64,000 bases of DNA, taken from assembly GCA_965204335.1 (NCBI GenBank), contig OZ241982.1, positions 2,183,462 to 2,247,461 on the forward strand, given 5' to 3'. This document shows positions 5,971-64,000 of the stretch, piece after piece (position 1 is the first letter of the stretch; every line of letters starts with the position of its first letter). Made by a program: the position numbers and the translations under genes. A model generated the notes under the pieces. The model was not told where the DNA came from. It saw only the letters and a program-made list of their open reading frames with translations, and searched no databases. The DNA comes from Dehalococcoidia bacterium. Lineage in GTDB: Bacteria; Chloroflexota; Dehalococcoidia; Bin125.

Positions 5971-6009
5971 GATTGAAATCGAAGACGAATGACGCGGAAG
6001 GAACCGATC

Positions 6010-6525: not shown

Positions 6526-6552
6526 CCGGCGCCGGCTCACAGACAACGAGAA

Positions 6553-6593: not shown

Positions 6594-6608
6594 CGCTACT
6601 CAGGACGG

Positions 6609-6959
6609 TCAGCCGGCGTTGGCCTGCTTAACGACGGCGCTGAACCCGTCGGGGTCGTGCAGCGCCATTTCGGCCAGGACCTTGCGGTCGATGTCGATGC
6701 CTGCCTGCTTGAGCGCGTGGATCAGGCGGCTGTAGGTCGTGCCGTTCAGTCGGGCGGCGGCGTTGATTCGCTGAATCCAGAGCCGGCGCATGTCTCCCTT
6801 GCGCTCCCGACGATGCGCATAGGCGTAGGACAGGGCGTGCAGCCGCGACTCGGAAGCTCGCCGGTACAGGCGGTGCCGCACACCGTGATGCCCCCTGGTC
6901 TGCTTGAGGACCTTCTTGTGTCGGCGGCGTTCTCGCGGGCCGCCCTTGACTCGTGGCAT
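6609..6959 (-). CDS. rplT: 50S ribosomal protein L20
   Basis: 116 aa; MPRVKGGPRERRRHKKVLKQTRG is a classic L20 N-terminus. Confidence 0.95.
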   Translation of the reverse strand: MPRVKGGPRERRRHKKVLKQTRGHHGVRHRLYRRASESRLHALSYAYAHRRERKGDMRRLWIQRINAAARLNGTTYSRLIHALKQAGIDIDRKVLAEMALHDPDGFSAVVKQANAG

Positions 6960-6998
6960 GACTCGGAATCCTGTTCTGCAGTGTTCAGCGGAGCGTCG

Positions 6999-7205
6999 CT
7001 AGGGCGATCCGTAGGGCAGTAGCCGCTTGACCCGCTTCTGGTCGCCGGAGCGCTTGACTTCGTGCATCCGGTTCTGTTCCCGCAGGGTGCGCTTGCTCTT
7101 CTTCTGCTTGTTGTGGCCGCGGTAGCCCTTCATTCGCAGCACCTTGCCGGTGCGGGTAATGCGGAATCGCTTGGCGGCGCCCTTGTGGGTCTTCATCTTC
7201 GGCAT
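6999..7205 (-). CDS. rpmI: 50S ribosomal protein L35
   Basis: 68 aa; [22 protein letters not shown]. Confidence 0.95.
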
Positions 7206-7367
7206 CGGTGACCGTCTCCCGCCCTGCCGCGCATCGTCGTCGACGCAGAGGTGCGTCTCCTCAGCTTAGGAGCAATTCGTGCACAGTCCAATCAGTCGAG
7301 ACACACAGCGATGCCGGGATCAGTGAGTCAACAACCGATCACCGTCGCTTCGGCGTGGACGCGCCGG

Positions 7368-7992
7368 CTAACTCGCCGCTTCGCTGGCCGCCTCAGCCTG
7401 TTGTTCGCGTTCCTCGGCCTCTGCCGCCGCCTTCGCCTCGGCGATCGCTTTGGCTTTCACCTTGTCCTCGGCCACGATGATGGACATGAACCGACCCTCA
7501 GTCGAGATCGGCTTTTCGATGATCGTCGGCACCTCGTTCTGCTCAAGCGTCTCGAGCATTTCGTGGATGCGTTCCTGCCCGATCTCTCGGTGCGTAATCT
7601 CGCGTCCACGGAAGGTGATCGAGATCTTGACCTTGTCGCCGTTGCGCAACAACCGGGCGGCGGTCCGACCCTTGGCCTCCATGTCGTGTTTGCCGATGTT
7701 CGGACGCATCTTGATCTGATGCAGGGCGGAGCCCTTCTGTCGCCGCCGGCCCTCGCGCTCCCGCTTCGACTGTTCGTACTTGAAGCGGCCGTAATCGAGC
7801 ATTTTGGCGACGGGCGGACGGGCGTTGGGCGCGACCTCGACGAGGTCCAGGCCCTGCGCGCGTGCGAGGTCCAGCGCCTGCACGGTCGGCATGATCCCGA
7901 GCTGTTCGCCTTCAGCGCCGATCACGCGCACTTCTCGGATGCGAATCGCTTCATTGACGCGCTGTTCTCTCTGTTCTCGTTGATCCTTGACT
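7368..7992 (-). CDS. infC: translation initiation factor IF-3
   Basis: IF-3 N- and C-domains (NEAIRIREVRVIGAEGEQLGI...VKISITFRGREITHREIG); conserved residues continue upstream of the GTG used by the ORF track, and the start is probably TTG 7992 or another non-canonical codon after SD AAGGAG 7995..8000. Confidence 0.85.
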
Positions 7993-8102
7993 GCCAGGGC
8001 AAAGCTCCTTCACTGCGAGCCGGTCTGCGGTTGGCTCTGTTGAGGCAGATGGTAGGTCCGCCGGCGCGCGGTTTCAAACAAGAGGGGTCCGATTTGGGAC
8101 CG

Positions 8103-8618
8103 TCACGCCGATTCCGTGTCGATCACCAGCATCGGATCGCCCTGATCGACCGCGTCGCCCGCCTCGACCGTCACCTGCGTAATCGTTCCCGCCGCCGGCG
8201 AGCGAATCTCGTTGTTCATCTTCATGGCCACGATCACGAGCAGCGGATCGCCCTCTTCGACCTGGTCCCCGGGCGCAACCAGGACTTCGGAGACCTGACC
8301 GGTCATCGGAGCGGTCAGCCGCACTTCCCCCTCGATCGCGGGACCGGAGTGACTGAGGACCCCCGCGCTGCGCTCGATCTCGGCCGAGTAGCGGTCCGGG
8401 CCGATGAACAGCTCGAGCGTCATGCCGTCGCGGCGGATCGCCAGCGGCGTGCTTTCGCCGTCGATCCAAAGTCGGAACAGCGTGCTGTCGTCGAGCGACT
8501 CCAACTCAAGCGAGTACTTCTCGCCCCCGAAATCGGCGAGATAGGTTCCGTTGCCGTCGTCGTCGATGGCAACTTCCTGCAGCCCGCCTTGCACGATTAG
8601 CCGGTAGTTCTTCGCCAT
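8103..8618 (-). CDS. accB: biotin carboxyl carrier protein of acetyl/acyl-CoA carboxylase
   Basis: C-terminal biotinyl domain with the AMKM biotinylation motif. Confidence 0.8.
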   Translation of the reverse strand: MAKNYRLIVQGGLQEVAIDDDGNGTYLADFGGEKYSLELESLDDSTLFRLWIDGESTPLAIRRDGMTLELFIGPDRYSAEIERSAGVLSHSGPAIEGEVRLTAPMTGQVSEVLVAPGDQVEEGDPLLVIVAMKMNNEIRSPAAGTITQVTVEAGDAVDQGDPMLVIDTESA

Positions 8619-10159
8619 CCCTGCTCCACGGGGAACCGTCGGCCGCGTGCCGACTGGGCCCAGGCCCGTCTGCGCGGCTGCGGTCCGTTGCGTTCCAGAT
8701 CGGCCCGCTCGCCCTGCGTGTGGAAGAACAGCGCCGCCGCCAGCGCGGCCTCCACCGCATGCGCCGGACGGTTGGCCGGATCGAGGATCTCGTTCTCTTC
8801 GACGTACAGCGTGTGAATCTCACCGTCGCGGAAGCAGGGATCGTCCATCAACGCCTGATGGAACGGAATCGACGTGCTCACCCCGATCACCAGGTATTCC
8901 CCCAACGCCCGCTTCATCCTTCGGATGCACTGATCTCGCGTTTCGCCCCAGGTGATCAGTTTGCCGATCAACGAGTCGTAATGCGGGCTGACTCCGACGC
9001 CACGGGCGAGCATGGAGTCCAGCCGTACGCCGGGGCCGTCGGCCTCGCGGAACCAGGCGATCGGTCCAACCGACGGTGAGAAGCCGTTGTACGGATCTTC
9101 CGCCGTAATCCGACACTCCATCGCCCAGCCCCGGATCGGACGTTCCGCCGCCGTGTAGCCAAGCGGGAATCCGCCGGCAATCCGGAGTTGATCCTGCACC
9201 AAATCGACGCCTCTGACCAGTTCGGTCACGGGATGCTCGACCTGGAGACGGGTGTTCATCTCCAGAAACGCGAAGTTGCGCCCGTCGGGAGCGTCCGGGT
9301 CGTCCCAGACCAGGAACTCGACCGTGCCGGTCGAGGTGTACGCGCAGGCTCGAGCGGCATTGGTCGCGGCCTCTTCCATGCGCGCGCGCAACTGGGGCGA
9401 CATTCCCGGCGCCGGCGACTCCTCGACCAGCTTCTGTCTGCGCCGCTGGGCGGAGCAGTCGCGTTCGCCCAGGCACACGATGTTGCCGCGCGTATCCGCC
9501 ACGACCTGGATTTCGATGTGCCGCGCCGGGCGCAGGAGTTTCTCAACAAACACCGCACCGTCGCCGAACGCCGTAATCGCCTCCTCCTGCGCCTGCTGCA
9601 CGGCTCGGTCGATCTCGTCCGGCGACTCGACCACTCGGATGCCGCGTCCACCACCGCCGGCGGCCGCCTTGATCACGACCGGATAGCCGATCTCATCCGC
9701 TATCTGACGCGCTTCCGAGGGGTCGATGAGCGGGTCGATCGCGCCGGGAATGATCGGCACACCGGCCTGTTTCATCGTCCGTCGCGACTCGATCTTGTCC
9801 CCCATCAGCTCGATGGCTTCGGGCGACGGGCCGACGAACACGATGCCGTGGTCGCGGCAAGCGCGGGCAAAGTTTGCATTCTCCGAGAGGAATCCATAGC
9901 CGGGGTGGATCGCGTCCGCGCCGGTTTCTTTGGCGGCGTTGATGATGGCATCGATTGACAAATAGCTTTCGGCCGGCGCAGGCGCGCCGATTCGAACCGA
10001 TTCATCCGCCATGCGAACGTGTCTCGCCCGCCGATCGGCGTCCGAGAACACCGCCACCGTCTCAATCCCCAGGTCGCGGGCGCCGCGAATCACGCGGACG
10101 GCGATCTCTCCGCGATTGGCGATCAGGAGCTTCTTGAAGGGGCGCTGGTAGTCAGTCAT
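8597..10159 (-). CDS. accC: biotin carboxylase (acetyl/acyl-CoA carboxylase subunit)
   Basis: ATP-grasp biotin carboxylase hallmarks (KLLIANRGEIAVRVIR, GYGFLSEN, EMNTRLQVEHPVTE); overlaps accB by 22 nt. Confidence 0.9.
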   Translation of the reverse strand: MTDYQRPFKKLLIANRGEIAVRVIRGARDLGIETVAVFSDADRRARHVRMADESVRIGAPAPAESYLSIDAIINAAKETGADAIHPGYGFLSENANFARACRDHGIVFVGPSPEAIELMGDKIESRRTMKQAGVPIIPGAIDPLIDPSEARQIADEIGYPVVIKAAAGGGGRGIRVVESPDEIDRAVQQAQEEAITAFGDGAVFVEKLLRPARHIEIQVVADTRGNIVCLGERDCSAQRRRQKLVEESPAPGMSPQLRARMEEAATNAARACAYTSTGTVEFLVWDDPDAPDGRNFAFLEMNTRLQVEHPVTELVRGVDLVQDQLRIAGGFPLGYTAAERPIRGWAMECRITAEDPYNGFSPSVGPIAWFREADGPGVRLDSMLARGVGVSPHYDSLIGKLITWGETRDQCIRRMKRALGEYLVIGVSTSIPFHQALMDDPCFRDGEIHTLYVEENEILDPANRPAHAVEAALAAALFFHTQGERADLERNGPQPRRRAWAQSARGRRFPVEQGWRRTTG

Positions 10160-18568: not shown

Positions 18569-18948
18569 GATCCGGTCTGCTCCACTGAGTTTACTCTGAC
18601 AGGAGTTCGCCGCCGCTGGTGATAGAATTATGGTCGGTCGTGCTAGATGGGGAGCTAGCGGTGCCCTGTACCCGCAATCCGCTCTAGCGGGGTTGAACTC
18701 CTGAGTTGAGGGCGGCGACATGAGAACTACCGACGCCAAGCAGTGATGAAGTCTGGGTCCCGCGCGGCGGCCCGCCGTGAACCCCGTCAGGTCCGAGAGG
18801 AAGCAGCGGTAAGCGGTTGACAGGTCGGGTGACGCGGGAGTGCCTGGACGGAGCCGGCTAGCGGAGGCAAGCTCATGGTGGCGTTCGAAGCCAGGTGCAC
18901 GACCACACCTTCTTCCTCACGTCTCCCGTGCACCACTCGAGGCGCAAC

Positions 18949-32513: not shown

Positions 32514-33505
32514 TGGTCCGCCTCTTCCGACGCCTGCGGCGTGACACCGACTCAGAGCCGGACGAAGTCGAGGCGCAGGAAGTCCGCGACGAGTACCGCC
32601 GCAGCGTTGCCAACACCAGGCGCGGGCAGCTGGGCGCGCTCAAGCGTGTCTTCTCCCGCTCGCGCGTTGATGAGGACTTCTGGGAGGAGCTCGAGGAGAC
32701 GCTCATCCTCGGAGACGTCGGCGGCGCGACCTCGGCCCAGTGGGTCGAGGAACTGCGGGAGGAGTCCCGAGGACTCGACGCTTCCTCCGTCCGCGGACTC
32801 TTGCGTGACCGCATGATTGACGGGTTGGAGCGTCCACAGACCGATGGTGCGCTGTGGAGCGCGAAGAACGGCGTCGGTTCGCCGGCCGCGCCGCATGTCG
32901 TGCTGGTCGTCGGCGTCAACGGCGCCGGCAAGACCACGTCGATCGCCAAGCTCGCGCACGCCTACCAACAGGAGGGCAAGTCGGTCATCCTCGCCGCGGC
33001 CGATACCTTCCGCGCTGCCGCAATCGAGCAACTGCAGACCTGGGGCGAGCGGATCGATGCGCCGGTTGTTGCCCATCAGCCGGGCTCCGATCCCGGCGCC
33101 GTCGCCTATGACGCCATCGAGTCGGCGCTGGCCAGAGCGGCCGACATCGTGCTGATCGACACCGCCGGCCGCTTGCAGACCCAGCGAAATCTGATGGCCG
33201 AGTTGGGCAAGGTCCGACGCGTGGTCGAGTCGAGACACGCCGGCGCGCCGCACGAGGTGCTGCTCGTGATCGACGCAACGAGCGGACAGAACGGACTCAG
33301 CCAGGCGCGTCAGTTCTCGCAGGCCACCGGAGTGACCGCCGTCTGCCTGGCCAAGCTGGACGGCACCAGCAAGGGCGGCATCGTCTTCGCGATCGCGGAG
33401 GAACTCGGCATCCCCGTGCGCTTCGCCGGCACCGGCGAACGGCTCGGCGACATCGCGCCGTTCGATGCCCCGGCGTTCGTCGACGCACTGCTGTCCGACG
33501 ACTAG
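32513..33505 (+). CDS. ftsY: signal recognition particle receptor FtsY
   Basis: Acidic N-terminus followed by an NG domain ([39 protein letters not shown]); conserved rnc-smc-ftsY neighbourhood. Confidence 0.9.
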
Positions 33506-36853: not shown

Positions 36854-37536
36854 TGCACCCGCGCGACGCGGCGGTGGTTTCGTTCGACTGTTACGGCACA
36901 TTGATCGACTGGCATTCGGGAGCCAGGGCCGCTGTCGAGGCGATTCCGGAACTGTCCGGCGTGGATCGCGATGCGCTGATCGCCCGGCGGATCGAGGTCG
37001 AGCTGGAGGTCGAGCACGAATACTACCGACCGTACGACCAGGTGCTCGCGCTCTCCATCCAGCGCACCGCCGCCGACTTCGGCGTCCAACTGAACGACGA
37101 CACGGCTCGATCCTTCGCCGATTCGATCGGCGCCTGGCCCCCGTTCCAGGACGCCGGCGGTTTCCTCCGCCGACTGGCAACGGTCGGCACGCCGTTGGCC
37201 ATCCTGTCCAATGTCACCAGGCAGAGCCTCGGCGTCAGCGTGCGCAAACTTGGAGCGCGGTTCGACCAGCTTGTGACGGCGGAGGACGTGCGGAGCTACA
37301 AGCCCGACCACGATCACTGGCGAGCCCTCTACGACTCGCGCGGCATCTCCCCGGATCGGCAGCTGCATATCGCCGGATCGATCGCCCACGACATCCGGCC
37401 GGCCTCCCAACTCGGCGCAACGACCGTCTGGGTACGGCGCCATCACGAGCCGATCCCCGACGATGTCCAACCCGACCTGATCGTCCAGTCGCTCGCAGAA
37501 CTCGGCGACTACTGGCGACTCCACTACTCGCGGTAG
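36850..37536 (+). CDS. HAD-superfamily hydrolase (haloacid dehalogenase type II-like)
   Basis: Motif I VVSFDCYGTLIDW; the ATG at 36850 overlaps the dinB stop by 4 nt; upstream part of track ORF 36010..37536 is run-on. Confidence 0.8.
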   Translation: MMHPRDAAVVSFDCYGTLIDWHSGARAAVEAIPELSGVDRDALIARRIEVELEVEHEYYRPYDQVLALSIQRTAADFGVQLNDDTARSFADSIGAWPPFQDAGGFLRRLATVGTPLAILSNVTRQSLGVSVRKLGARFDQLVTAEDVRSYKPDHDHWRALYDSRGISPDRQLHIAGSIAHDIRPASQLGATTVWVRRHHEPIPDDVQPDLIVQSLAELGDYWRLHYSR

Positions 37537-38375: not shown

Positions 38376-38422
38376 CTCTCCCCCCGCGCCAGCGGGGGGA
38401 GATGCCGCAGGCAGAGGGGGGG
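38376..38422 (+). repeat. GC-rich double-hairpin extragenic repeat, copy 1 (CTCCCCCCGC-GCCA-GCGGGGGGAG AT GCCGCAGGC AGAGGGGGG)
   Basis: A 10-bp perfect stem, then a TGCC/GGCA mini-hairpin, then a G-tract; lies 32 nt after the cupin stop in a convergent gap. Confidence 0.85.
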
Positions 38423-43506: not shown

Positions 43507-43551
43507 CTCTCCCCCCGCTTTGCGGGGGGAGATGCCGAAGGCAGAGGGGGG
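43507..43551 (+). repeat. GC-rich double-hairpin extragenic repeat, copy 3
   Basis: CTCTCCCCCCGC-TTT-GCGGGGGGAG AT GCCGAAGGC AGAGGGGGG, 15 nt after the malic-enzyme stop. Confidence 0.85.
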
Positions 43552-52100: not shown

Positions 52101-52807
52101 GTCCGGCCAACCCGACCATCGGTCGGCGACAACTTCAGGTCGAACACGGCGGCGAAGGCTCGCTCCAACGCCGGCATGCACTCCGCGACTGTGAAGTCGC
52201 GTCCGGTCTCGGCCGACAGCGACGTTGCCACGCCGCCCTCGACGCCGCAGGCGCGAATGCCGTCGAACCAGGCCAGGTCGATGTCGCAGTTCAAGGCCAG
52301 TCCGTGCCGGGAAACGCCCGACTGGACGCGAACGCCGATACTCGCCAGTTTCCGATTGTCAATCCACACGCCCGGCCGTCCGCGAACGCGGTCCGCCTGG
52401 ACGCCGAAACCGGCAGCCGTGTCAATCGCAACCTGCTCGAGACCTCGCACGTACCGGGCGATGCCGATGCCGCGTTCGCGGAGCCTGAGGATCGGCCAGA
52501 CCACCAGTTGTCCGGGACCGTGAAACGTCACGTCGCCGCCGCGGTCGGTGTCGACGATCGGCGCCTCGAGCGGGGCGAGCACGTGTTCGCGGCCGCCCCG
52601 ACGTCCCTGGGTGTACACGGGTGCGTGCTCCAGCACGGCCACAATCTCCGGCCGGCTGCCCAGGGCCACCGATTCCGCGCGATCCGCCTGCCAGGCCAGG
52701 GCGGAGCCGTACTCGACCAGGCCCAGACGGGCGATCTGAACGATTCTCGAGCGTTCAATCCCGGGTGCTTCGCGGTCCAGAACGGCCCCATGCCGGCGTC
52801 GAGACAT
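52097..52807 (-). CDS. lipB: lipoyl(octanoyl) transferase
   Basis: LipB/BPL fold (RGGDVTFHGPGQLVVWPIL); 4-nt overlap with lipA; N-terminal start codon uncertain. Confidence 0.85.
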   Translation of the reverse strand: MSRRRHGAVLDREAPGIERSRIVQIARLGLVEYGSALAWQADRAESVALGSRPEIVAVLEHAPVYTQGRRGGREHVLAPLEAPIVDTDRGGDVTFHGPGQLVVWPILRLRERGIGIARYVRGLEQVAIDTAAGFGVQADRVRGRPGVWIDNRKLASIGVRVQSGVSRHGLALNCDIDLAWFDGIRACGVEGGVATSLSAETGRDFTVAECMPALERAFAAVFDLKLSPTDGRVGRT

Positions 52808-52901
52808 AGCGTTCCCCGGTCGGTTTCCGTTTGTTTAAGTCTATCGAGCAGCACCGTCCGCGGCGGGTCGGTCGCGTTCCGTTGACTAGACTGAAAACAC
52901 G

Positions 52902-55598: not shown

Positions 55599-55607
55599 GG
55601 AATCAGC

Positions 55608-56993
55608 ATGACGACCACCGCATCCGGCGCCGGCGCTGTTCTGCTCCCCGACCTGGGCGAGGACATCGAAGAAGCCGATGTGCTCCAGATCTACGTGAGC
55701 GTCGGCGACGAGATCGTCCTGGAACAGCCGATCGTCGAGATCGAGACGGAAAAGGCCACGCTCGACCTGCCGTCGCCGACGGCCGGCGTCGTCACCGAGA
55801 TTCATGTGCGCGCAGGAGACACGATCCGGCCCGGCGATCCGGTCCTCAGCGTCGACTCCGGCACATCCCCTCCCCCGCCTGCCCGGTCCCCTTCGCCTCC
55901 CGTTGAGGCAGCGCCCGAGGAGCCGGTCGTCAATTCGTCTTCGCCGCCGGTCGAGACGGCAGCCCCGGTTGAGCCCGAGCCGGCGCCAACTCCTGAACCG
56001 AAAGTCGATCGCGATCATCCCGCGCCGATCCTGCGCGTCCCGCCGGCCGCTCCGGCGCCGCTGGTGGAAGGCGACCTCGAATCTCGCCCGGTGTTTGCGT
56101 CGCCCTCGGTGCGGCGACTCGCGCGGGAGATCGGCGTCGACATCCGCACGGTCCGGGGCAGTGGCCCGGGCGGCAGGATTGACCAGGGAGACATCAAGCG
56201 TCACGCACGGGAGACGCCGTCGCAAACGCCCGATTCAGGGCATTCCGAGCGCTCTCCGGGTCCGTTGCCCGACTTCTCCGAGTTCGGCGCGGTCGACCGG
56301 ATCCCCATGAGCCGTTTGCGCCGCACGATCAAACGCAACATGACCGTCTCCTGGCACGAAGTGCCGCACGTCACGCTCTTCCACACGGCCGACGTCACCG
56401 AGTTGGAGCAGGTCCGCCGCGACTACCGTGATCGCGCCGAGGAGGCCGGCGGCCGCCTGACGATCACGGCGATCCTGCTCAAGATCACGGCCGCCGCGCT
56501 CCTCGCGCACCCGCACGTCAATAGCTCGATCGACGCAGAGAACGACGAACTCGTGCTCAAGAAGTACGTCAACGTCGGCGTCGCGGTTGATACCCCCCGC
56601 GGACTGGTCGTCCCCGTAATCCGCGATGTCGACAAGAAGAACATCATTGAGATATCGGTCGAGTTGACCGATATCTCGGAGCGCGCTCGCTCCGGCGAAC
56701 TGGGGCTCCAGGACTTCCGTGGGAGCAGCTTCACCGTGACCAATCTCGGCGGCATGGGAACCGGTCACTTCACGCCGATCATTCATCACCCGAACACCGC
56801 CATTCTTGGGATCGGCCGAGCGGAGAAGCGGCCCGAATGGTCCGACGTGCTCGACGGCTGGGAGCCGCGCAGCATCCTGCCGATGTCGTTCACCTTCGAC
56901 CACCGCGTCATGGACGGCGCGGACGGAGCCCGGTTCATGACCTGGATCGCCGATGTGATCCGCCAGCCGCTCGTGCTGGCGCTCGGGGGTTAG
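55608..56993 (+). CDS. dihydrolipoamide acetyltransferase (2-oxo acid dehydrogenase E2)
   Basis: Lipoyl domain (IETEKATLDLPSP), Pro/Ala linkers, PSBD, and a catalytic domain with DHRVMDG. Confidence 0.9.
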   Translation: MTTTASGAGAVLLPDLGEDIEEADVLQIYVSVGDEIVLEQPIVEIETEKATLDLPSPTAGVVTEIHVRAGDTIRPGDPVLSVDSGTSPPPPARSPSPPVEAAPEEPVVNSSSPPVETAAPVEPEPAPTPEPKVDRDHPAPILRVPPAAPAPLVEGDLESRPVFASPSVRRLAREIGVDIRTVRGSGPGGRIDQGDIKRHARETPSQTPDSGHSERSPGPLPDFSEFGAVDRIPMSRLRRTIKRNMTVSWHEVPHVTLFHTADVTELEQVRRDYRDRAEEAGGRLTITAILLKITAAALLAHPHVNSSIDAENDELVLKKYVNVGVAVDTPRGLVVPVIRDVDKKNIIEISVELTDISERARSGELGLQDFRGSSFTVTNLGGMGTGHFTPIIHHPNTAILGIGRAEKRPEWSDVLDGWEPRSILPMSFTFDHRVMDGADGARFMTWIADVIRQPLVLALGG

Positions 56994-56996
56994 CCC

Positions 56997-58430
56997 GTGG
57001 TCTCCGCCGGCGCAGCCGCCAACGGCGACTTCCATCTCGTCGTGCTCGGCGCCGGACCGGGCGGCTATCCCGCCGCCTTCCACGCCGCCGAACGCGGACT
57101 CGATGTCACCTTGATCGATACCCGTCCACAGCCCGGAGGCATCTGCCTCTATGAGGGCTGCATTCCCTCAAAGGCGCTGCTGCACGTGGCCAAGCTGTTG
57201 CGTGAGGCTCGCCACGCCTCGGAGTGGGGCATCAACTTCGCCGAGCCGACCATCGACGTTGACGCCTTGCGCGAATGGAAGGACGGCGTCGTCCGCAAGA
57301 TGACCAACGGACTGGGCCTGCTCCGGCGTCAACACAACGTGCGCTATCAGCAGGGCTTCGGGCGCATCCGCGATGCCAACCAGCTCAATGTCGAGTCCAA
57401 CGGCGAGGTCATACCGGTCGACTTCGACGCTCTGATCGTCGCGACGGGATCAACGCCGGTCGTGCCCCGCTCACTGCAGATCGAGTCCGAACGCGTCATG
57501 GACTCAACCGACGCGTTGAATCTCACCGACGTGCCCGGCTCCCTGCTGGTGATCGGCGGCGGATACATCGGCCTCGAGCTGGGAACCGTGTACGCCGAGC
57601 TCGGGTCGGAAGTGACCGTGGTCGAGGCATTGCCGCAGATTCTCACCGGCGTTGAGCGCGACCTGGTGCGTGTGCTGGAGCGAAGCCTGCGCACTCGGCT
57701 CAAGGACACCCGGGTCGACACCTCGGTGGTCTCGCTCACGGAAGTCGAGGACGGCGTTGAAGCGGTCATCGCCGACAAGGAGGGCGTCGAGAGCACCGAG
57801 CGCTTCGACCGCGTCCTGATCGCGACCGGCCGCCGGCCCAACAGCGCCGGCCTCGGCCTGCATCGCACGCAGGCGCATGTCGATTCGCACGGATTCATCG
57901 TCACCGATCAACAACGTCGGACCGCAGAATCATCAATCTTTGCGATCGGCGATGTCGCCGGCGAACCGATGTTGGCGCACAAGGCGACGGCCGAGGCGTC
58001 GGTGGCGGTAGAGGCGATCATCGGCGAACCGTCGGCGTTCCGCCCGCTCGCCGTCCCGGCGGTAATCTTCACCGATCCGGAGATCGCCTGGTGCGGGCTC
58101 ACCCAGGCCGAGGCCACAGGATTGGATATCGAAGCGACGACCGTCAGCTTTCCCTGGGCCGCGTTGGGCCGAGCTTCAGCCTCGGGCCGCAACGACGGCC
58201 TGACCCGCCTGGTGATTGAGCGCGGATCCGAGCGTGTGCTGGGCATGCAGGTCGTCGGACCGGGCGCCGGCGAGCTGATCGGCGAGGGCGTGCTGGCCGT
58301 CGAGCTGGGCGCGCGCGCGGCGGACCTGGCCGAGTCGATCCACGCCCATCCCACCCTCAACGAGTCGATCATGGAGGCCGCCCAGGTCTTCTTCGGCCGC
58401 AGCCCTCACTACCTCACCCGGCGTCGTTGA
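56997..58430 (+). CDS. lpdA: dihydrolipoyl dehydrogenase (E3)
   Basis: GAGPGGY...GGICLYEGCIPSK redox-active disulfide; HAHPTLNE. Confidence 0.9.
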   Translation: MVSAGAAANGDFHLVVLGAGPGGYPAAFHAAERGLDVTLIDTRPQPGGICLYEGCIPSKALLHVAKLLREARHASEWGINFAEPTIDVDALREWKDGVVRKMTNGLGLLRRQHNVRYQQGFGRIRDANQLNVESNGEVIPVDFDALIVATGSTPVVPRSLQIESERVMDSTDALNLTDVPGSLLVIGGGYIGLELGTVYAELGSEVTVVEALPQILTGVERDLVRVLERSLRTRLKDTRVDTSVVSLTEVEDGVEAVIADKEGVESTERFDRVLIATGRRPNSAGLGLHRTQAHVDSHGFIVTDQQRRTAESSIFAIGDVAGEPMLAHKATAEASVAVEAIIGEPSAFRPLAVPAVIFTDPEIAWCGLTQAEATGLDIEATTVSFPWAALGRASASGRNDGLTRLVIERGSERVLGMQVVGPGAGELIGEGVLAVELGARAADLAESIHAHPTLNESIMEAAQVFFGRSPHYLTRRR

Positions 58431-58440
58431 GGCTGCCGCG

Positions 58441-59319
58441 ATGCTGATTGAGCTGGGCGGGCAGACGCTCGACGCCACCGACCGCTGCCATGTCATGGGC
58501 ATCCTCAACGTCGCCACCGACTCCCCGGTGGCCGATTCCATTGTCGCCGTCGGTGACGCGCCTCGGCGGGCAGCCGAGTTGCGGGACGCCGGCGCGTCGA
58601 TCATCGACGTTGGCGCTCAATCGACTCGTACCGGCGCGGCGGAGATCTCGCCGGACGAGGAAATTGCGCGTGTCGCGCCGGTGGTTGAATCACTGATCGC
58701 GGAGGGACATCTGATCTCCGTCGACACCTGGACCGCTTCGGTCGCCCGGGCCGCCGTCGCGGCCGGCGCACATCTGATCAACGACATCACCGGCGCCGAC
58801 CCGGACACGGTGCAGGTCGCCGTCGAGACCAACACGCCGATCGCCGTAATGCACATGCGCGGTCGCCCGCAGCGCCACCGCGAGGCGACCCACCAATACG
58901 ATGATGTCAGCCTCGAGGTGCGCGACTATCTCGGCAGCCGGGCACGCCAGATCAAGGCCGCCGGCGCGCCGGAGGTCTGGCTCGATCCCGGCTTCCAGTT
59001 CGGACGTGGACTCGAAGACAATCTGCGCCTGCTCCTGGATTTGCCCAACCTCGCCAGGCTCGGACATCCGGTCCTGATCTCGGCGTCGCGCAAGGGATTC
59101 CTGGCCGAGATGCTGGGTCACGGAGAGCTGCGCTCCCACGATGCCCAGGACAAACCGGGCATGCTGGAGGCGACGGTCGCCTTCAACGCGCTGGCGGCCT
59201 GGATGGGCGCGCACGTCGTCCGCGTCCACGACGTTCAGGAGGTTGCCTGGGCGCTCAACGTCTCGGCAGCCGCACGAGCAGTACGCCGAGCCCAGGGCGC
59301 GGTAGACTCGATCCGATGA
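58441..59319 (+). CDS. folP: dihydropteroate synthase
   Basis: VMGILNVATDSP ... DVGAQSTRTG ... pterin-binding barrel. Confidence 0.85.
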   Translation: MLIELGGQTLDATDRCHVMGILNVATDSPVADSIVAVGDAPRRAAELRDAGASIIDVGAQSTRTGAAEISPDEEIARVAPVVESLIAEGHLISVDTWTASVARAAVAAGAHLINDITGADPDTVQVAVETNTPIAVMHMRGRPQRHREATHQYDDVSLEVRDYLGSRARQIKAAGAPEVWLDPGFQFGRGLEDNLRLLLDLPNLARLGHPVLISASRKGFLAEMLGHGELRSHDAQDKPGMLEATVAFNALAAWMGAHVVRVHDVQEVAWALNVSAAARAVRRAQGAVDSIR

Positions 59320-59343
59320 TCCTGCGCACAAGGAGGTGACGCC

Positions 59344-59544
59344 ATGCCGGTCTATACCTATCACTGCGAAGAGTGCAGCGAGAGTTTCGAGAAAATCCGC
59401 CCGATGTCGCGCGCCTCGGAACCCCACCCCTGTCCGAGCTGCGAGGCGGAGGCGGAGCGAGTGGTCTCCGGCATCTTCGAGAACAACTCGACCAAGAACC
59501 GCTCCGCCAACTTCCCCAAGCGCAAGCGCTACACCAACTGGTAA
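59344..59544 (+). CDS. FmdB-family zinc-ribbon protein
   Basis: MPVYTYHCEECSESFE...CPSCEAEAERVVS. Confidence 0.75.
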   Translation: MPVYTYHCEECSESFEKIRPMSRASEPHPCPSCEAEAERVVSGIFENNSTKNRSANFPKRKRYTNW

Positions 59545-59582
59545 CCGTCAAGCAGCAGACGCGCCACTGTCCGGAGAGCCGC

Positions 59583-60698
59583 ATGAGCCAGCGCCCGCCC
59601 GACCCGATTCCGTTCCCACGCGACCGAATCCAACGCGGAGATCGGCGGAGTGCGCCGCCGCCTCCGCAGCAGCAACAACAGCCATCGGGGCCGGTCATCT
59701 ATTCGGCCTCGGGCCAACCGATGCGCCGAGTCCAGCAGCAACCGGCGGCGCCTCCGCCGACGGAGCCCGTGCCGCTTCGACGACCGCCGCCTCCGGCGCA
59801 ACCCGCCGAATCAACGGACGCGTCCGAGCCTCAGGAGCCGCAGGGACTGCACGGCCACGTCGCCGCCGTGATCGACTCGACCGACGCGACCTTTACTCGG
59901 GATGTGATCGAACGCTCGCACGAGTTGCCGGTCATCGTCGACTGTTGGGCGCCGTGGTGCGGACCCTGCCGCATTCTGGGACCAATCCTCGAGAAGCTCG
60001 CCTACGAGCGCGACGGACAGGTGCAACTCGTCAAGGTCAATACGGACGAGAATCCGCAGGTCGCCCAGGCGCTCCAGGTTGAAGGCATTCCGGCCGTCTT
60101 CGCATTCGTCGGCGGACAGCTCGTGAACAAGTTCGTCGGGGCCATCCCGGAGGAACAGGTTCGATCGTTCTACGACTCGCTTGTTCCCTCGGAGGCCGAC
60201 ATCAAGGCGGCCGAGGGCTACCGGATGATGCAGGAGAACCAGATCCCCATCGCCCGACTCCACTTTGAGTCGGCGTTGGAGGAGGACCCCAACCACGAAC
60301 CGGCCGGTGTTGGGCTCGCCGCGATCCTGGTGCGCATGGGAGAGAACGACCGCGCGAAGGAGCTGGCCGGCCGATGGCCCAACCATCCGATGAGCAAGAG
60401 CGTGCTGACCTCGATGGAGCTCACGGCTGCGCTCGAGGGCTACGAGGCCGACGAGATTCGCCGCGCCGCCGGCGCGCATCCCGACGACGCCATGGCGAGA
60501 TATCGCCACGGGTGTCTGCTGGCGGTCGAGAGCCAGTGGATGGAAGCGCTCGACGAAATGCTGGAGTCGGTCAGAATCGACAAAACCGCCGGCGACGAAG
60601 CAGCCCGCAAGACCTTACTCGGCATCTTCGGAATGCTCGGAGACGACCAGCCCGTCGTGGTCGAATATCGCAAGCGCCTCGGCCGCCTGCTCTTCTGA
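59583..60698 (+). CDS. thioredoxin-domain protein with a C-terminal TPR-like region (YbbN/CnoX-like)
   Basis: WCGPC active site followed by a helical repeat domain; preceded by a Pro/Gln-rich region; ATG 59583, and the upstream part of track ORF 59373.. is run-on. Confidence 0.8.
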   Translation: MSQRPPDPIPFPRDRIQRGDRRSAPPPPQQQQQPSGPVIYSASGQPMRRVQQQPAAPPPTEPVPLRRPPPPAQPAESTDASEPQEPQGLHGHVAAVIDSTDATFTRDVIERSHELPVIVDCWAPWCGPCRILGPILEKLAYERDGQVQLVKVNTDENPQVAQALQVEGIPAVFAFVGGQLVNKFVGAIPEEQVRSFYDSLVPSEADIKAAEGYRMMQENQIPIARLHFESALEEDPNHEPAGVGLAAILVRMGENDRAKELAGRWPNHPMSKSVLTSMELTAALEGYEADEIRRAAGAHPDDAMARYRHGCLLAVESQWMEALDEMLESVRIDKTAGDEAARKTLLGIFGMLGDDQPVVVEYRKRLGRLLF

Positions 60699-60702
60699 TC
60701 CG

Positions 60703-60747
60703 CTCTCCCCCCGCGCAGCGGGGGGAGATGCCGCAGGCAGAGGGGGG
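60703..60747 (+). repeat. GC-rich double-hairpin extragenic repeat, copy 4
   Basis: CTCTCCCCCCGC-GCA-GCGGGGGGAG AT GCCGCAGGC AGAGGGGGG, 5 nt after the stop of the thioredoxin-TPR gene. Confidence 0.85.
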
Positions 60748-60825
60748 CGCTCCCGATGCGCAGTGACGCTGATACCGAAGGATGCAGGCCTTCCGATGGC
60801 CTCGGCACGTTCGTAGGCCCCGGCC

Positions 60826-61260: not shown

Positions 61261-62940
61261 ATGCACCCACCGACCAAATTCTCCCTGCTTGACGCCGAAG
61301 GGCGGGAACAGCAGTTCCCGCCGGACGGACCCGTGCTGCTGGCGCTCGTCAAGGAGGACTGCGACACCTGCAACCTGACCCTCCCTCTGCTCGAAGCCGT
61401 CCATCGAGACACCGCAGAAGGACTGGACGTCTGGGTCGCCGTCCAGAAGACGGACGACATCCCCGTCCTCAAGCAACGTCACGACCTGACGATGCCCTTG
61501 CTCGACGACGACGCGCTCGATCTCTCCTACGAGACCGACATCGACACGGTTCCGACGCTCTTCCTCTACGACGCGGAGCAGAACTGCACACTGCAAACCT
61601 TCGGCTTCGACAAGCACGAGTGGCGCGAGATCGCGGGCGAGTCGATGACCCTGGCCGGGCGTCCCGGCGTCGAGACCTCGATTGACTGGGAGTCGCTGCC
61701 CGAGCAGCGGCCCGGCTGCGGCGCCCGCAACTACGAGCCGGGCGTCTACGAGCGCCTGCAGGCGCTCAAGAGCGGGGATCTGCTCTCGCGACTGGTCGAC
61801 CTCGCCTCGAGCGACGACATCCACGAGTTCATGTACGACCAGGGCTACACCGACGGCTTCCCGGTCGTGCCGCCGACTCGCGAGCGCGTCTGGAAGATGC
61901 TCCAGGGCACGACCCGGGATCCGCAGGAAGAAGTGGCGATCGTGCCGCCCAACCTGGCGCCGATCACCGTCGAGAAGGTCGCGATCAACGCCGTCATGGC
62001 AGGCGCGAAACCCGAGTATCTGCCCGCGATCATCGCCCTCGTCGAGACCGCCTGCACCGAGACCTTCAACATCCACGGCGTCCTCGCAACCACGATGGGC
62101 GCGACGCCGGTTGGCATCTTCAACGGACCGATCCGCGACCGGATCGGCATGAACTACCTCCACGGAGCGCTCGGCTCAGGCAATCGAGCCAACGCGGCAA
62201 TCGGGCGAGCCCTCCGGCTCTGCGCCCGCAACGTCGGCGGCAGCTTGCCCGGCGGCACCGACCGCGCCACGCAGGGCGGCCCGCATCGATTGACCATGAA
62301 CTTCGCCGAGAACGAGGACGCCAGCCCCTGGGAGTCCCTCGCCGTCGAGTACGGCTTCGAGCCGACCGACGACGTCGCCACGCTGATGGCGATGTCCGGC
62401 GGACCGGCCACGATCGCCGACGAACGCTCCCGCGACGGCAGAGGCATGGCCGGCACGCTGGCGATGTCCATGAGCTGCATGCAGGATCCCAAGTCACCCA
62501 TGGTCGACACCCTGGTCGTACTCTCGCCCGATCACGCCGGCATCTTCGGCCGCTCCGGCTGGTCCAAAGACGATGTGCGCGAGTGCATCATGGAGGAGAC
62601 GGCCATCCCGCTGAAGTACCGTCTCCGCTCGGACGACGCCGGCTGCGGTCTGCCACCGTCCGTCGTGGAGCGGTTCGGCGGCGAAGCCGCGCTCGACCTG
62701 CCGGTGCCCAAGTTCCGCGATAAGTCCAACATCATCCTCGTCGTCGCCGGCTCCCCCGCCGCCAAGTTCTCCACCATCCTCGGCGGCTGGGCCGGGGGAG
62801 TCTATTCCACGCCGACCAGCGCCAGGATCGGATCAGGCGGCGCAGAGGAGATCCGCGGCGCCCGAGACGCCGACATGGACAAGCGCGACTCCGGCGGTCG
62901 CGATCTCGGTGCGTTCGAGCCAAACGTCCGCCGGACTTGA
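61261..62940 (+). CDS. uncharacterised protein: N-terminal thioredoxin-fold (TlpA/redoxin-like, CDTC) domain fused to a ~400-aa conserved domain of unknown function
   Basis: 559 aa; LLALVKEDCDTCNLTLPLLE thioredoxin-fold CxxC; the C-terminal domain (HEFMYDQGYTDGFPVVPPTRERV...LAPITVEKVAINAVMAGAKPEY) is paralogous to the ORF starting at 63697. Confidence 0.7.
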   Translation: MHPPTKFSLLDAEGREQQFPPDGPVLLALVKEDCDTCNLTLPLLEAVHRDTAEGLDVWVAVQKTDDIPVLKQRHDLTMPLLDDDALDLSYETDIDTVPTLFLYDAEQNCTLQTFGFDKHEWREIAGESMTLAGRPGVETSIDWESLPEQRPGCGARNYEPGVYERLQALKSGDLLSRLVDLASSDDIHEFMYDQGYTDGFPVVPPTRERVWKMLQGTTRDPQEEVAIVPPNLAPITVEKVAINAVMAGAKPEYLPAIIALVETACTETFNIHGVLATTMGATPVGIFNGPIRDRIGMNYLHGALGSGNRANAAIGRALRLCARNVGGSLPGGTDRATQGGPHRLTMNFAENEDASPWESLAVEYGFEPTDDVATLMAMSGGPATIADERSRDGRGMAGTLAMSMSCMQDPKSPMVDTLVVLSPDHAGIFGRSGWSKDDVRECIMEETAIPLKYRLRSDDAGCGLPPSVVERFGGEAALDLPVPKFRDKSNIILVVAGSPAAKFSTILGGWAGGVYSTPTSARIGSGGAEEIRGARDADMDKRDSGGRDLGAFEPNVRRT

Positions 62941-63028
62941 GTCGGGATCAGGGGATGTGGAAGAGTAGACTGCGTTAGACACACGGCGCGCCGCAACCCT
63001 GCAGACGGCGCGTTGATGGAGAGGTCCA

Positions 63029-63559
63029 ATGGTTACCCAGATCCTTGACCCAACCGACGAACGAGTGCCGATCAAGCGGCAGCTCACGCCGCGCCCCGAG
63101 GCGCTGCATGGGACGATCGCCCTGCTCGACATCTCCAAGCCGCGCGGCGACGTCTTCCTCGACCGACTCGAGGAGCTCCTGCATGAGCGCGCGCCGGGAG
63201 TCGAAACCAGGCGATTCATGAAGCCGACCGTCGCCAAGCCGGCACCGCAACCGATCAAAGATGCGATCCTGGAGGAGTGCGACTTCGTCATCGAAGCGCT
63301 CGCTGATTGAGGATCCTGCACGACGTGCAGTGTGCACGACACCGTTTTCTTCGAACTGCAGGGCAAGCCCAGCGTCTTCGTCGCCACCTCTGAGTTCATC
63401 AAGGCCGCCAGCCACCAGGCCGAACGCCTCGGACTCGAAGAGGTGCGCCGAGTCTTCATCCCGCATCCGATGCAGGACCGCACGGACGCCGAGATGCACG
63501 AACACGCCGAACGCTTCGTCGACGAAATCCTCGACACCTTGATGGCCCCCGTCGAGTAG
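63029..63559 (+). CDS. candidate selenoprotein with a U-G-S-C motif (in-frame TGA 63308..63310 read as Sec); the ORF track splits it into 63029..63310 and 63332..63559
   Basis: Both fragments share one frame with a single TGA between them; readthrough gives ...DFVIEALAD-U-GSCTTCSVHDTVFFELQGKPSVF...; SD GGAGAGG before ATG 63029 and none before GTG 63332; stem-loop immediately 3' of the TGA. Confidence 0.6.
63311..63345 (+). promoter_or_regulatory. SECIS-like stem-loop immediately downstream of the in-frame UGA
   Basis: CUGCAC-GAC-GUGCAG (63316..63330), with alternative GUGCA-GUG-UGCAC pairing extending to 63337; starts 5 nt after the UGA. Confidence 0.45.
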
Positions 63560-63601: not shown

Positions 63602-63620
63602 CCCTCCGGTCCCACTTCCC

Positions 63621-63665
63621 CCCTCCCCCCGCTCCGCGGGGGGAGATGCCGAAGGCAGAGGGGGG
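63621..63665 (+). repeat. GC-rich double-hairpin extragenic repeat, copy 5
   Basis: CTCCCCCCGC-TCC-GCGGGGGGAG AT GCCGAAGGC AGAGGGGGG. Confidence 0.85.
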
Positions 63666-63696
63666 CTCCCCCTCCACCGAACAGCCACCTAAGGCG

Positions 63697-64000
63697 CCAC
63701 CGTGCCCGCCGAATCCGACACCTTCACGCGAATCATCGAAATCGCCGAACACGACGACGTCTACGAGTTCATGTTCGCGCAGGGCATTACCGACGGCCTG
63801 CCCGTCGTCCCGCCGACCCGCGAGCGAGTCGACCGCATGCTCGCCTTCGCTCCGGACCACTGGAGCGAATCACAGAAGATCGTCGCCACGCTCCCGCCCA
63901 ACCTGGCGCCGATGACGGTCGAGAAGGCCGCCATCAACGCCGTCATGGCCGGCTGCAAGCCCGAATACTTCCCAACCGTGCTGGCCTCGGTCGAGGCCGC
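63697..64000 (+). CDS. paralog of the 61261..62940 C-terminal domain (partial, runs off the window end); appears to lack the thioredoxin-fold N-domain
   Basis: A GTG near 63697 (VPAESDTFTRIIEIAEHDDVYEFMFAQGITDGLPVVPPTRERVDRML...LAPMTVEKAAINAVMAGCKPEY) aligns by eye with residues ~200-290 of the 61261 protein. Confidence 0.6.

Follow-up and report, generated by a model that had tools for sequence, protein, structure and literature searches.

UGSC selenoproteins were described by the selenoproteome surveys of the Sargasso Sea and of GOS (PMC2398784) and appear in a 2026 review (PMC13188914). The family is abundant in aquatic metagenomes, occurs overwhelmingly with Sec rather than Cys and is functionally uncharacterised (PMC2398784, PMC13188914); the GOS survey counted 255 Sec against 21 Cys forms (PMC2398784). 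Fusion of UGSC to a domain called 'Unknown_1' is already on record, and a Trx-like fold was suggested for the family in 2008 (PMC2398784). A U-x-x-C motif is also found in the selenoproteins GrdB, GrdF and PrdB, the B subunits of glycine, sarcosine and proline reductase (PMC2398784, Table 2). For the SECIS hairpin, the bSECIS model describes a loop of 3-9 nt with G in loop positions 1-2, a stem of 4-16 bp, a UGA-to-loop distance of 16-37 nt and an energy of -7.5 kcal/mol or lower (PMC13188914).

The window analysed here, i. e. the whole stretch of 64,000 nucleotides, contains a gene that resembles this family and is interrupted by an in-frame TGA. Its elements are:

63029..63559, + strand: predicted UGSC-family selenoprotein gene, 176 codons including the Sec-UGA, with start codon ATG 63029 and final stop TAG 63557..63559
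63018..63024, + strand: Shine-Dalgarno-like GGAGAGG, 4 nt 5' of the start codon, as read from the sequence
63308..63310, + strand: in-frame TGA, the putative selenocysteine codon, residue 94, in a U-G-S-C (U-x-x-C) motif

The ORFs 63029..63310 and 63332..63559 share one reading frame, the sole interruption of which is the TGA at 63308..63310. The initial annotation had described them as two same-frame ORFs split by this codon, and all elements of that description are present in the sequence. Reading through the TGA yields a product of 176 aa, ...EECDFVIEALAD-U-GSCTTCSVHD..., and the U-x-x-C claimed for such a read-through protein is found in it as D-U-G-S-C. The start at ATG 63029 is consistent with the N-termini of the homologs (M..ILDPTDER). 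A Shine-Dalgarno sequence had been noted before this codon alone, and indeed the sequence contains no such run 5' of GTG 63332. In public MAG annotation, complete Dehalococcoidia chromosomes included, the gene is routinely entered as two hypothetical ORFs of ~96 aa and 75 aa, both tagged PF24696.

With U replaced by C, the read-through product scored 153.6 bits against the NCBIfam model NF041046 'UGSC family (seleno)protein' (cut-off 125; model positions 4-146 of 147) and 151.6 bits against the Pfam model PF24696 'UGSC' (cut-off 25; model positions 1-171 of 172). The family name given in the initial annotation was thus correct. The two halves taken separately reached 53.5 and 78.9 bits against NF041046, each below the cut-off of 125. 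The full-model score, the U/C-G-S-C motif at the homologous site and the single domain of ~175 aa place the gene in the UGSC family. Besides this family match, the database comparison of the read-through translation, a check proposed at the outset, returned Cys homologs that span the site.

The homologous codon was TGA in all 81 copies from 80 related loci, which are 52-99% identical to the window gene over its full length and span at least five phyla (Chloroflexota, Alpha-/Gamma-/'Delta'-proteobacteria, Binatia, Acidobacteriota, Actinomycetota). Farther away, Cys was aligned with the TGA (D-C-G-S-C) in 85 of 95 full-length representatives, a count that refers to representatives spanning the site, 55 further ones being half-length pieces that end or start there. 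Homologs P0002 and P0005 carry Cys (CGSC) in a full-length protein, and the 'W' at this site in homolog P0001 is a TGA in the DNA that the gene caller had translated as W. Two of the points on which the initial annotation had made its proposal depend were thereby decided in its favour: homologs do not end at the TGA as a rule, the Cys forms running through both halves, and in these forms Cys is aligned with the putative Sec. Within the window's own clade, dN/dS was 0-0.15 in both gene halves. Since it was 0-0.15 after the TGA as well as before it (dS after the TGA 0.1-0.5), the post-TGA half is translated. The UGA is thus kept in frame by the orthologs and is flanked on either side by conserved coding sequence, as expected of a selenoprotein gene. 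Judged from these sequence comparisons, the in-frame TGA most likely encodes selenocysteine, and we consider it highly probable that the locus carries one 176-residue UGSC selenoprotein gene in which Sec is inserted at the UGA by way of a hairpin in the coding sequence and whose product works with the partner domain X described below.

Were the TGA a genuine stop, the locus would encode two small proteins, one of 93 aa from the N-terminal half and one of 75 aa starting at GTG 63332. Both ORFs do exist, and public gene callers give them as ORFs of ~96 and 75 aa that both belong to PF24696. Against this stand the Cys forms and the [UGSC]-[X] fusions, which are single polypeptides across the site; the missing Shine-Dalgarno sequence before 63332; and the fate of GTG 63332 itself, which is not kept as a start but is TTG, ATG or, in loci L069 and L073, the non-start codon ACG. 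In addition, the seven codons from the TGA to the GTG encode the invariant family motif G-S-C-T-T-C-S, either half alone stays below the NF041046 cut-off, and the AF2 model of P0002 is one compact domain with sheet strands from both halves. A genuine stop is therefore extremely improbable.

Nearly as improbable is a second reading, in which the UGA is read through without Sec, either by a near-cognate Trp or Cys in a lineage lacking Sec machinery or in a recent pseudogene. It could draw on the absence of Sec machinery genes from the window and on the gene caller that rendered a homolog's TGA as W. Indeed, none of selA, selB, selD and tRNA-Sec was found within the 64 kb, and the ~30 larger window genes scanned for Sec machinery were all housekeeping genes. 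Two long tRNAs called by ARAGORN were rejected as tRNA-Sec: a 'tRNA-Arg' at 33390..33481, which had no Rfam support and lies inside an FtsY-like coding sequence, and a 'tRNA-Ser' at 37069..37159, likewise without Rfam support. Yet the window uses TGA as a regular stop, and more often than any other: it ends 28 of 51 complete gene calls, and reassignment of TGA is rejected for this reason. A window-wide screen for coding signal running through a TGA returned the codon at 63308..63310 and one antisense artefact; no further selenoprotein gene was found by it in the 64 kb. The presence of TGA in 81 of 81 copies, never replaced by TGG or TGY among close relatives, argues for selection on the UGA itself, and the downstream dN/dS of 0-0.15 excludes a pseudogene. 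A frozen GU-loop hairpin at SECIS distance would moreover serve no simple leaky read-through. Finally, Sulfitobacter sp. M05 (L056) has Sec machinery adjoining this module, in the order selA, selB, tRNA-Sec and then redoxin-X and UGSC(TGA), with scores of 589.6 bits for selA, 278.2 bits for selB and 70 bits for tRNA-Sec (Rfam). When used as queries against the locus flanks, SelA and SelB of this strain matched only the strain itself, and an approximate E. coli SelD query gave no tblastn match in the flanks.

Reading of the UGA as Sec, which we prefer, calls attention to the RNA that follows it. Three helices have to be considered there:

63316..63330, + strand: hairpin H1, CUGCAC-GAC-GUGCAG, beginning 5 nt past the TGA, the primary candidate of the initial annotation
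63322..63340, + strand: hairpin H2, the best-supported SECIS candidate, with the core 63324..63329 / 63333..63338 (CGUGCA/UGCACG)
63313..63340, + strand: alternative long hairpin H3, in which the S-C-T codons are paired with the V-H-D codons and which excludes H2

The two hairpins that had been proposed after the TGA are both found, at 63316..63330 and 63324..63338, and they fared differently. H1 was rejected as the SECIS: its closing pair is broken in 33 of 61 homologs, it shows no compensatory change and does not exceed shuffled alignments, and its UGA-to-loop distance of 11 nt lies below the 16-37 nt of the bSECIS model. Its mean ensemble pair probability was 0.10. Thus the primary candidate fails on spacing and covariation, whereas the 'alternative' fold GUGCA-GUG-UGCAC is the conserved one, so that a structure after the UGA, with compensatory changes, is indeed kept among orthologs.

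In H2, the core was paired in all 366 cells across the homologs. The apical loop GUG is formed by 63330..63332, and a flanking pair, G63322-C63340, lies beyond an A.A mismatch. Compensatory changes occur at pairs 24-36 and 28-32, and pair 21-39 switches between GC and AU; the counts for the outer pair are 38 GC and 8 AU. The covariation score was reached by none of 500 shuffles, a result that comprises few independent events and in which coding constraint is confounded with RNA constraint. Cleaner evidence for H2 is the footprint at synonymous sites. Codons +5 to +9 after the TGA are frozen, with effective codon numbers of 1.07, 1.00, 1.00, 1.00 and 1.34, against a mean of 2.49 and a minimum of 1.38 among 28 codons for conserved residues in other parts of the gene, all of which the freeze exceeds. 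The codons of Ser+2, Cys+3 and Thr+4 vary freely at synonymous sites. H2 was also the consensus chosen independently by RNAalifold. Its geometry agrees with the bSECIS model (a GUG loop at a distance of 19 nt from the UGA, on a stem of 6 bp to which a flanking pair is added). Its energy in the window lay between -7.4 kcal/mol for the fold of 19 nt and -7.0 kcal/mol when the outer pair was counted, compared with the threshold of -7.5; that of H3 was -7.8. Single-sequence folds were not significant against shuffles (z = +0.58 for 63300..63365 and z = -0.17 for 63308..63346), and therefore a hairpin in the window sequence alone proves nothing; the comparison of homologs, with TGA in 81 of 81 copies and the frozen codons +5 to +9, goes far past what chance would give. 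A search of 63250..63420 against Rfam at a permissive threshold gave noise and no family matching the hairpin. The H2 helix is lost in a true Cys form (L082), the hairpin is still intact in another Cys form (L081), and in L072 the loop of a second, divergent copy is UUU and contains no G. On the alignment evidence, the SECIS is most likely H2, CGUGCA-GUG-UGCACG at 63324..63338.

It is possible, if rather unlikely, that SelB binds H3 instead of H2, or that both helices serve in turn, H3 as the resting fold and H2 forming after a ribosome at the UGA has melted the 5' arm of H3. In H3, 63323 is bulged out, C63324 pairs with G63330 and the loop reads GUGCA, starting with GU as that of H2 does. The bulge together with the GU loop recalls the SECIS of E. 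coli fdhF. Of the three helices, H3 has the greatest stability in 44 of 61 homologs (mean -9.8 compared with -6.7 kcal/mol for H2) and dominates the ensemble in 29 of 61. In L069 and L073 both partners of its neighbouring pairs 19-32 and 20-31 are exchanged, via Thr->Val and Val->Thr. This thermodynamic preference for H3 and its own compensatory changes speak against a firm assignment of SelB binding to H2. However, its cells are paired in only 85.5%, pairs 15-36 and 12-39 being each unpaired in 34 of 61 homologs, and in the gammaproteobacterial clade pair 20-31 is broken in the middle of the stem, which leaves H3 with just -0.3 to -4.3 kcal/mol. Its 5' arm (codons +2 to +4) shows baseline synonymous variation, its UGA-to-loop distance of 14 nt is under the 16-37 nt of the bSECIS model, and RNAalifold favours H2 over it. 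With the UGA in the A site, moreover, the 5' arm, 3-4 nt past the UGA, would be inside the ribosomal mRNA channel.

The fold of the protein was approached through the Cys homolog P0002, which is 51% identical to the window protein. Its AF2 model had a pLDDT of 91.1 and a pTM of 0.85 and consists of one compact domain whose beta-sheet takes strands from both gene halves; the C/U site starts the helix that follows beta-3. The predicted UGSC fold is one of five beta-alpha units, flavodoxin/Rossmann-like and not thioredoxin-like, and the beta-alpha-beta-alpha-beta-beta-alpha core of the thioredoxin fold is not seen in the model.

Two neighbours of the UGSC gene in the window bring in the partner domain X:

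61261..62940, + strand: conserved upstream partner gene, 559 aa, with an N-terminal TlpA/ResA-like redoxin (C34-x-x-C37) followed by the ~370-aa domain X
63702..64000, + strand: 5' part of an X-only paralog that runs beyond the end of the window, with D1/D2 repeats in common with the upstream gene

The D1/D2 repeat of the paralog from 63702 is 77-78% identical to the upstream gene at the nucleotide level. In the near-identical locus L001 the X-only paralog is 367 aa long and a second one of 363 aa is next to it (ORFs 6642..7745 and 7752..8843); with the X of the upstream gene they share 50% identity, and with one another 61%. An X gene lies immediately upstream of UGSC in 51 of 71 loci, downstream in 21 of 75 and on either side in 60 of 80, and in most loci it is a [redoxin]-[X] gene that adjoins UGSC. 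Among 14 long representatives, ten are fusions of the type [Cys-UGSC]-[X]. The gene order in the window, UGSC and then an X-only paralog, mirrors the natural [UGSC]-[X] fusions. More than 7000 proteins carry X (partner search alone), and sequence and fold searches of the PDB with UGSC and X gave no specific relative. As X is found next door, as paralogs and fused to Cys-UGSC, we infer that UGSC serves an X-type enzyme as its dedicated redox module. What X does chemically and which way electrons would flow are pure conjecture.

Taken together, the following course of events can be proposed. The ribosome would pass the UGA at 63308..63310 without stopping, as the hairpin within the coding sequence, most likely the one at 63324..63338, recruits SelB with Sec-tRNA(Sec) and Sec is inserted. 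The product would be a cytoplasmic selenoprotein of 176 residues, with Sec at the N-terminus of a helix and in a U-x-x-C dyad of a five-stranded flavodoxin/Rossmann-like alpha/beta domain, as is typical of redox centres in which a selenol and a thiol cycle via a selenenylsulfide. Its partner would be the ~370-residue X, either fused to the TlpA-like CxxC redoxin (61261..62940) or as X-only protein (63702..). The actual insertion of Se, the choice of the SelB-binding helix and the redox role are what we infer here.

Somewhat more doubtful than not, yet worth stating, is a wider interpretation in which UGSC and X form a widespread, uncharacterised, selenium-dependent redox enzyme system. X, which has no solved or modelled relative, would be the catalytic part and would receive redox equivalents from a TlpA-like CxxC domain fused to it or from a (seleno)UGSC domain, present in the same protein or supplied by a neighbouring gene; for the clade of the window, this would mean a single Sec-UGSC shared by three X paralogs. 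If this were true, knowing the substrate of X would reveal what one of the most abundant selenoprotein families of aquatic habitats does. Experimental handles are offered by the [redoxin]-[X] neighbour, the [UGSC]-[X] fusions and a cultured isolate of Sulfitobacter that has selA-selB-tRNA-Sec right next to the module.

For annotation, the analysis means that a mis-called UGSC gene can be mended mechanically by joining the ORFs across the TGA. To the known family it adds a probable SECIS of 15-19 nt, delimited by its covariation and by the footprint at synonymous sites, the occurrence of X as a conserved neighbour besides its role as fusion partner, and a predicted fold that is not that of thioredoxin. 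These by-products leave the kind of finding unchanged.

Compared with the bSECIS model, H2 is alike in being a stem-loop within the coding sequence after the UGA, with a small loop starting with GU, an upper stem of 6-7 bp and a spacing of 19 nt. It differs by its very short triloop and by an energy just above the -7.5 threshold, and unlike a standard bSECIS it sits in a triple GUGCAC/UGCA palindrome that permits two competing helices. With the SECIS of E. coli fdhF it has no sequence similarity. The classical members of the TlpA/ResA/DsbE/CcmG group are periplasmic or membrane-anchored, whereas the partner protein, as far as can be read from its sequence, has no evident signal peptide or anchor and additionally carries the ~370-aa C-terminal X, which has no known relative. 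GrdB, GrdF and PrdB have the U-x-x-C motif type in common with UGSC, but they are ~430 aa long as opposed to 176 aa and have a different gene context. UGSC residues 81-175 matched the last ~90 residues of GrdB and GrdF (NCBIfam) below threshold, with E-values of 0.03 and 0.018 and 13.2-13.7 bits compared with cut-offs of 602-800, and Pfam PF07355 gave no match to the UGSC read-through product at E<=1; homology of UGSC to the GrdB/PrdB family (PF07355; TIGR01917) is not established. The Trx-like fold suggested in 2008 (PMC2398784) is unsupported by the AF2 model of P0002. With the UGSC family itself the window gene has in common the U-G-S-C motif, the length of ~175 aa and the predominance of Sec over Cys in its close clade, and the gene differs from it in nothing: it is an ordinary member of an already-described selenoprotein family, known since 2005–2008.

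The candidate selenoprotein gene is laid out as follows:

63018..63024, + strand: Shine-Dalgarno sequence GGAGAGG, preceding the ATG
63029, + strand: ATG start of the UGSC gene, read from the sequence
63029..63310, + strand: first ORF of the mechanical list, 93 aa
63308..63310, + strand: in-frame TGA, which ends the first ORF and after which the same frame goes on
63332..63559, + strand: second ORF of the mechanical list, GTG start, 75 aa
63557..63559, + strand: final stop TAG, closing the read-through frame

The read-through product has 176 residues and contains ...EALAD-U-GSCTTCSVHD.... The initial annotation had described the ATG, the Shine-Dalgarno sequence, the TGA, the common frame and the product length exactly. 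When U was exchanged for C, it matched NCBIfam NF041046 'UGSC family (seleno)protein' with 153.6 bits (curated cut-off 125 bits; model positions 4-146 of 147) and Pfam PF24696 'UGSC' with 151.6 bits (positions 1-171 of 172). Each half alone reached only 53.5 and 78.9 bits with the NCBIfam model; the match needs both halves of the gene. Because both models match the full read-through product, the family name given in the initial annotation was right, and the gene truly belongs to the UGSC selenoprotein family.

A scan for homologous loci, limited to one genome per species, yielded 80 loci. The closest were Dehalococcoidia/Chloroflexota MAGs with 95-99% protein identity, and thus the window belongs to this lineage. 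The others, with identities down to 52%, came from Tepidiformaceae, Anaerolineae, Binatia, 'Delta'- and Gammaproteobacteria, a cultured Sulfitobacter, Acidobacteriota and Actinomycetota. The aligned codon was TGA in all 81 copies, and the alignment continued past it. With a Cys-form homolog as the query, 1.84 billion cluster representatives were searched exhaustively, and 1404 relatives were found. Among the best 150 of these, 95 spanned the site, 85 of them with Cys in D-C-G-S-C and two with 'W'; 55 more were half-length pieces that ended at the site or started just after it, the typical mark of Sec forms that have been split. The DNA behind one 'W' protein (P0001, at locus L083) reads TGA; the JGI gene call for P0001 (L083 187-708) renders this homologous TGA as Trp.

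In the window's own clade, dN/dS 3' of the TGA was 0-0.15 (dS 0.1-0.5), as low as 5' of it. Therefore this lineage does translate the downstream half, and a pseudogene is ruled out. Genome-wide reassignment of TGA is likewise ruled out, since 28 of the window's 51 complete gene calls end in TGA; 63308..63310 is the sole place there where a strong coding signal crosses a TGA. The possibility that 63029..63310 and 63332..63559 encode separate proteins is contradicted by the GTG at 63332, which has no Shine-Dalgarno sequence, by the homologous 'start' codon, which varies (TTG, ATG or the non-start ACG), and by the predicted structure, which is one domain drawing on both halves.

This structure was predicted with AlphaFold2 for P0002, a naturally occurring Cys homolog that shares 51% identity with the window protein (pLDDT 91.1, pTM 0.85). 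Five beta-alpha units follow one another in the model; C/U lies at the N-terminal end of the helix that comes after strand 3, and the dyad's second Cys is one turn further on. Such a placement of U-x-x-C would imply thiol/selenol oxidoreductase chemistry. A survey in 2008 proposed a 'likely Trx-like fold' for UGSC (PMC2398784); because of its five beta-alpha units, the predicted model does not support this. Weak sub-threshold matches to the C-terminal part of both GrdB and GrdF (E 0.03 and 0.018) may be a lead.

Neither tRNA-Sec nor selA, selB or selD was found in the 64-kb window. Two ARAGORN calls, a 92-nt 'tRNA-Arg(tcg)' (33390-33481, within the 3'-terminal part of an FtsY-like CDS) and a 91-nt 'tRNA-Ser(cga)' (37069-37159), got no support from the Rfam tRNA model; both calls are probably spurious, and neither represents tRNA-Sec. 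In the cultured isolate Sulfitobacter sp. M05 (NZ_JABEDH010000001.1; locus L056, 645-6510), selA (TIGR00474, 589.6 bits versus 267.9), selB (TIGR00475, 278.2 bits versus 242.25), tRNA-Sec (Rfam RF01852, 70 bits versus 47), a redoxin-X gene (see below) and a TGA-containing UGSC gene follow each other in this order on the same strand, the first three directly upstream of the last two. This order is strong evidence for an association of the UGSC family with the Sec machinery; for the window's genome it is indirect evidence only. In this isolate, UGSC may be among the main clients of the Sec machinery, which would make it a convenient experimental system.

Folds of the single window sequence were no better than those of shuffles (z = +0.58 and z = -0.17), hence any claim of an RNA element must rest on comparison with other sequences. 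Downstream of the UGA, a self-complementary core (UGCA/GUGCAC) occurs three times, arising from the codons for S-C-T, T-C-S and V-H-D. Thus three mutually exclusive helices are possible:

63316..63330: H1, copy 1 with copy 2, CUGCAC-GAC-GUGCAG, the primary hairpin of the initial annotation
63324..63338: H2, copy 2 with copy 3, (C)GUGCA-GUG-UGCAC(G), its alternative hairpin
63313..63340: H3, copy 1 with copy 3, which emerged on folding homologs

The first two are present as had been described. Each helix was tested on an alignment of 61 distinct 54-nt sequences and compared with the consensus bacterial SECIS (loop of 3-9 nt, stem of 4-16 bp, G in the first two loop positions, UGA-to-loop distance of 16-37 nt, energy of -7.5 kcal/mol or lower; PMC13188914). 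H1 was not above shuffles (mean ensemble pair probability 0.10), and it was rejected as the SECIS: its closing pair is lost in 33/61, no change is compensatory, and its spacing of 11 nt is too short. The alternative hairpin H2, in contrast, is conserved. Its core cells are paired in 366/366, compensatory changes occur at 24-36 (G-C to A-U in L028) and 28-32 (A-U to G-C in L069/L073), and the flanking pair 21-39 is GC in 38, AU in 8, GU in one and unpaired in 14 sequences. RNAalifold, unaided, picks H2. Its loop (GUG), stem and 19-nt spacing all fit the consensus; its energy of -7.0 to -7.4 kcal/mol is borderline.

The cleanest discriminator between the three was the synonymous-site freedom, given as effective codon numbers per position in 81 distinct genes. 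Codons +5..+9 (ACG TGC AGT GTG CAC) had values of 1.07, 1.00, 1.00, 1.00 and 1.34, below every one of the 28 codons for conserved residues in the rest of the gene (mean 2.49, minimum 1.38), whereas codons +1..+4 were at baseline (3.38, 3.57, 1.77, 2.59). Ser and Cys provide internal controls: Ser +2 takes six codons and Ser +7 is AGT in 79/79; Cys +3 is TGC in 60 and TGT in 21, and Cys +6 is TGC in 81/81. Thus the arms and loop of H2 are frozen, and the 5' arm shared by H3 and H1 is not.

We therefore consider H2 (63324..63338, extended 63322..63340) the probable SECIS, if with some reserve. That H3 takes this role, or that H3 and then H2 are used in sequence, seems rather unlikely: H3 is the most stable of the three helices in 44/61 homologs, pairs in 85.5% of cells and has two adjacent compensatory pairs in L069/L073, yet besides its synonymously free 5' arm it is broken mid-stem in the gammaproteobacterial clade, pair 15-36 is open in 34/61, and its 14-nt spacing is marginal. 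In bacterial Sec decoding, with the UGA in the A site, the ribosome would be expected to cover the 5' arm of H3, which begins 3-4 nt downstream; held there, it would leave copy 3 free, and H2 could form about 11-13 nt downstream.

The Cys forms, being two sequences, are a weak control for H2 as the SECIS. In L082 (TGC) the helix and the GU loop are gone. In L081 (947-1486, encoding P0002; TGT) the SECIS-like hairpin is fully intact, which suggests that Sec was converted to Cys recently or that the single low-coverage contig contains a sequencing error. In a Vicinamibacteria MAG (L072), two UGSC genes with the TGA (at 6268 and 12053) are separated by about 5.8 kb; the second, 32% identical to the window protein, has an 8-bp H2-type stem with an apical loop UUU without G.

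The genes and elements around the UGSC gene include:

17138-18739, - strand: 533-aa ORF, no NCBIfam match, overlapping the SRP RNA by about 100 nt
18638-18902, + strand: large SRP RNA (Rfam RF01854, 169 bits)
38392-38421, 43522-43551, 60718-60747 and 63636-63665, all + strand: four exact copies of a repeat core (0 expected in shuffles)
60699-60754 and 63617-63672, + strand: full 56-nt copies of the repeat
51210-52181: lipoyl synthase
52902-60698: pyruvate dehydrogenase operon (aceE, E2 acetyltransferase, lipoamide dehydrogenase), folP and a thioredoxin-TPR fusion, directly 5' of redoxin-X/UGSC
61261-62940, + strand: redoxin-X, 559 aa, a TlpA/ResA-like redoxin fused to a domain X of about 370 aa
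63702-64000, + strand: first X-only paralog, running off the window end

The true start of the 533-aa ORF is probably further downstream. The dispersed intergenic repeat (core GCGGGGGGAGATGCCG[C/A]AGGCAGAGGGGGG, with the palindrome CTCCCCCCGC..GCGGGGGGAG 5' of it) looks REP/MITE-like; the closest relatives (L001-L007) have it at syntenic sites too, distant loci do not, and one copy separates the UGSC stop from the gene that follows. The gene content of 51210-60698 makes this a dithiol/disulfide-rich neighbourhood.

The redoxin-X family has more than 7000 matches, and the sources label it by the redoxin domain alone; no relatives of X were found in Pfam, NCBIfam or PDB. Of the 71 judgeable loci, 51 have an X gene directly upstream of UGSC; directly downstream the count is 21/75, and for either side 60/80. 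Tepidiformaceae loci lack it. Downstream of UGSC, the window's clade has two X-only paralogs, so that the gene is surrounded by three X paralogs, one redoxin-fused and two X-only (in the near-identical locus L001, all three lie within 4240-8843). Natural fusions of an N-terminal Cys-form UGSC to X make up 10 of the 14 long UGSC-containing representatives (e. g. P0318), and the order UGSC then X in the window may be the split form of these. The most economical reading is that UGSC would serve the X-type enzymes as a redox module of their own, which could either replace the fused redoxin domain or complement it.

The initial interpretation is thus supported with one correction, namely that the 'alternative' hairpin is the conserved one. 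The gene is of a known kind: NCBIfam has a curated equivalog model for the UGSC family, and public databases already contain near-identical sequences, wrongly annotated as two ORFs. The partnership with X and the clean SECIS footprint make the function of the family, entered as 'uncharacterized' in a 2026 review (PMC13188914), more approachable experimentally. In the GOS data UGSC was among the most abundant families (255 Sec versus 21 Cys forms), and the same 2008 survey mentions an 'Unknown_1' domain fused to UGSC (PMC2398784), which is probably X.
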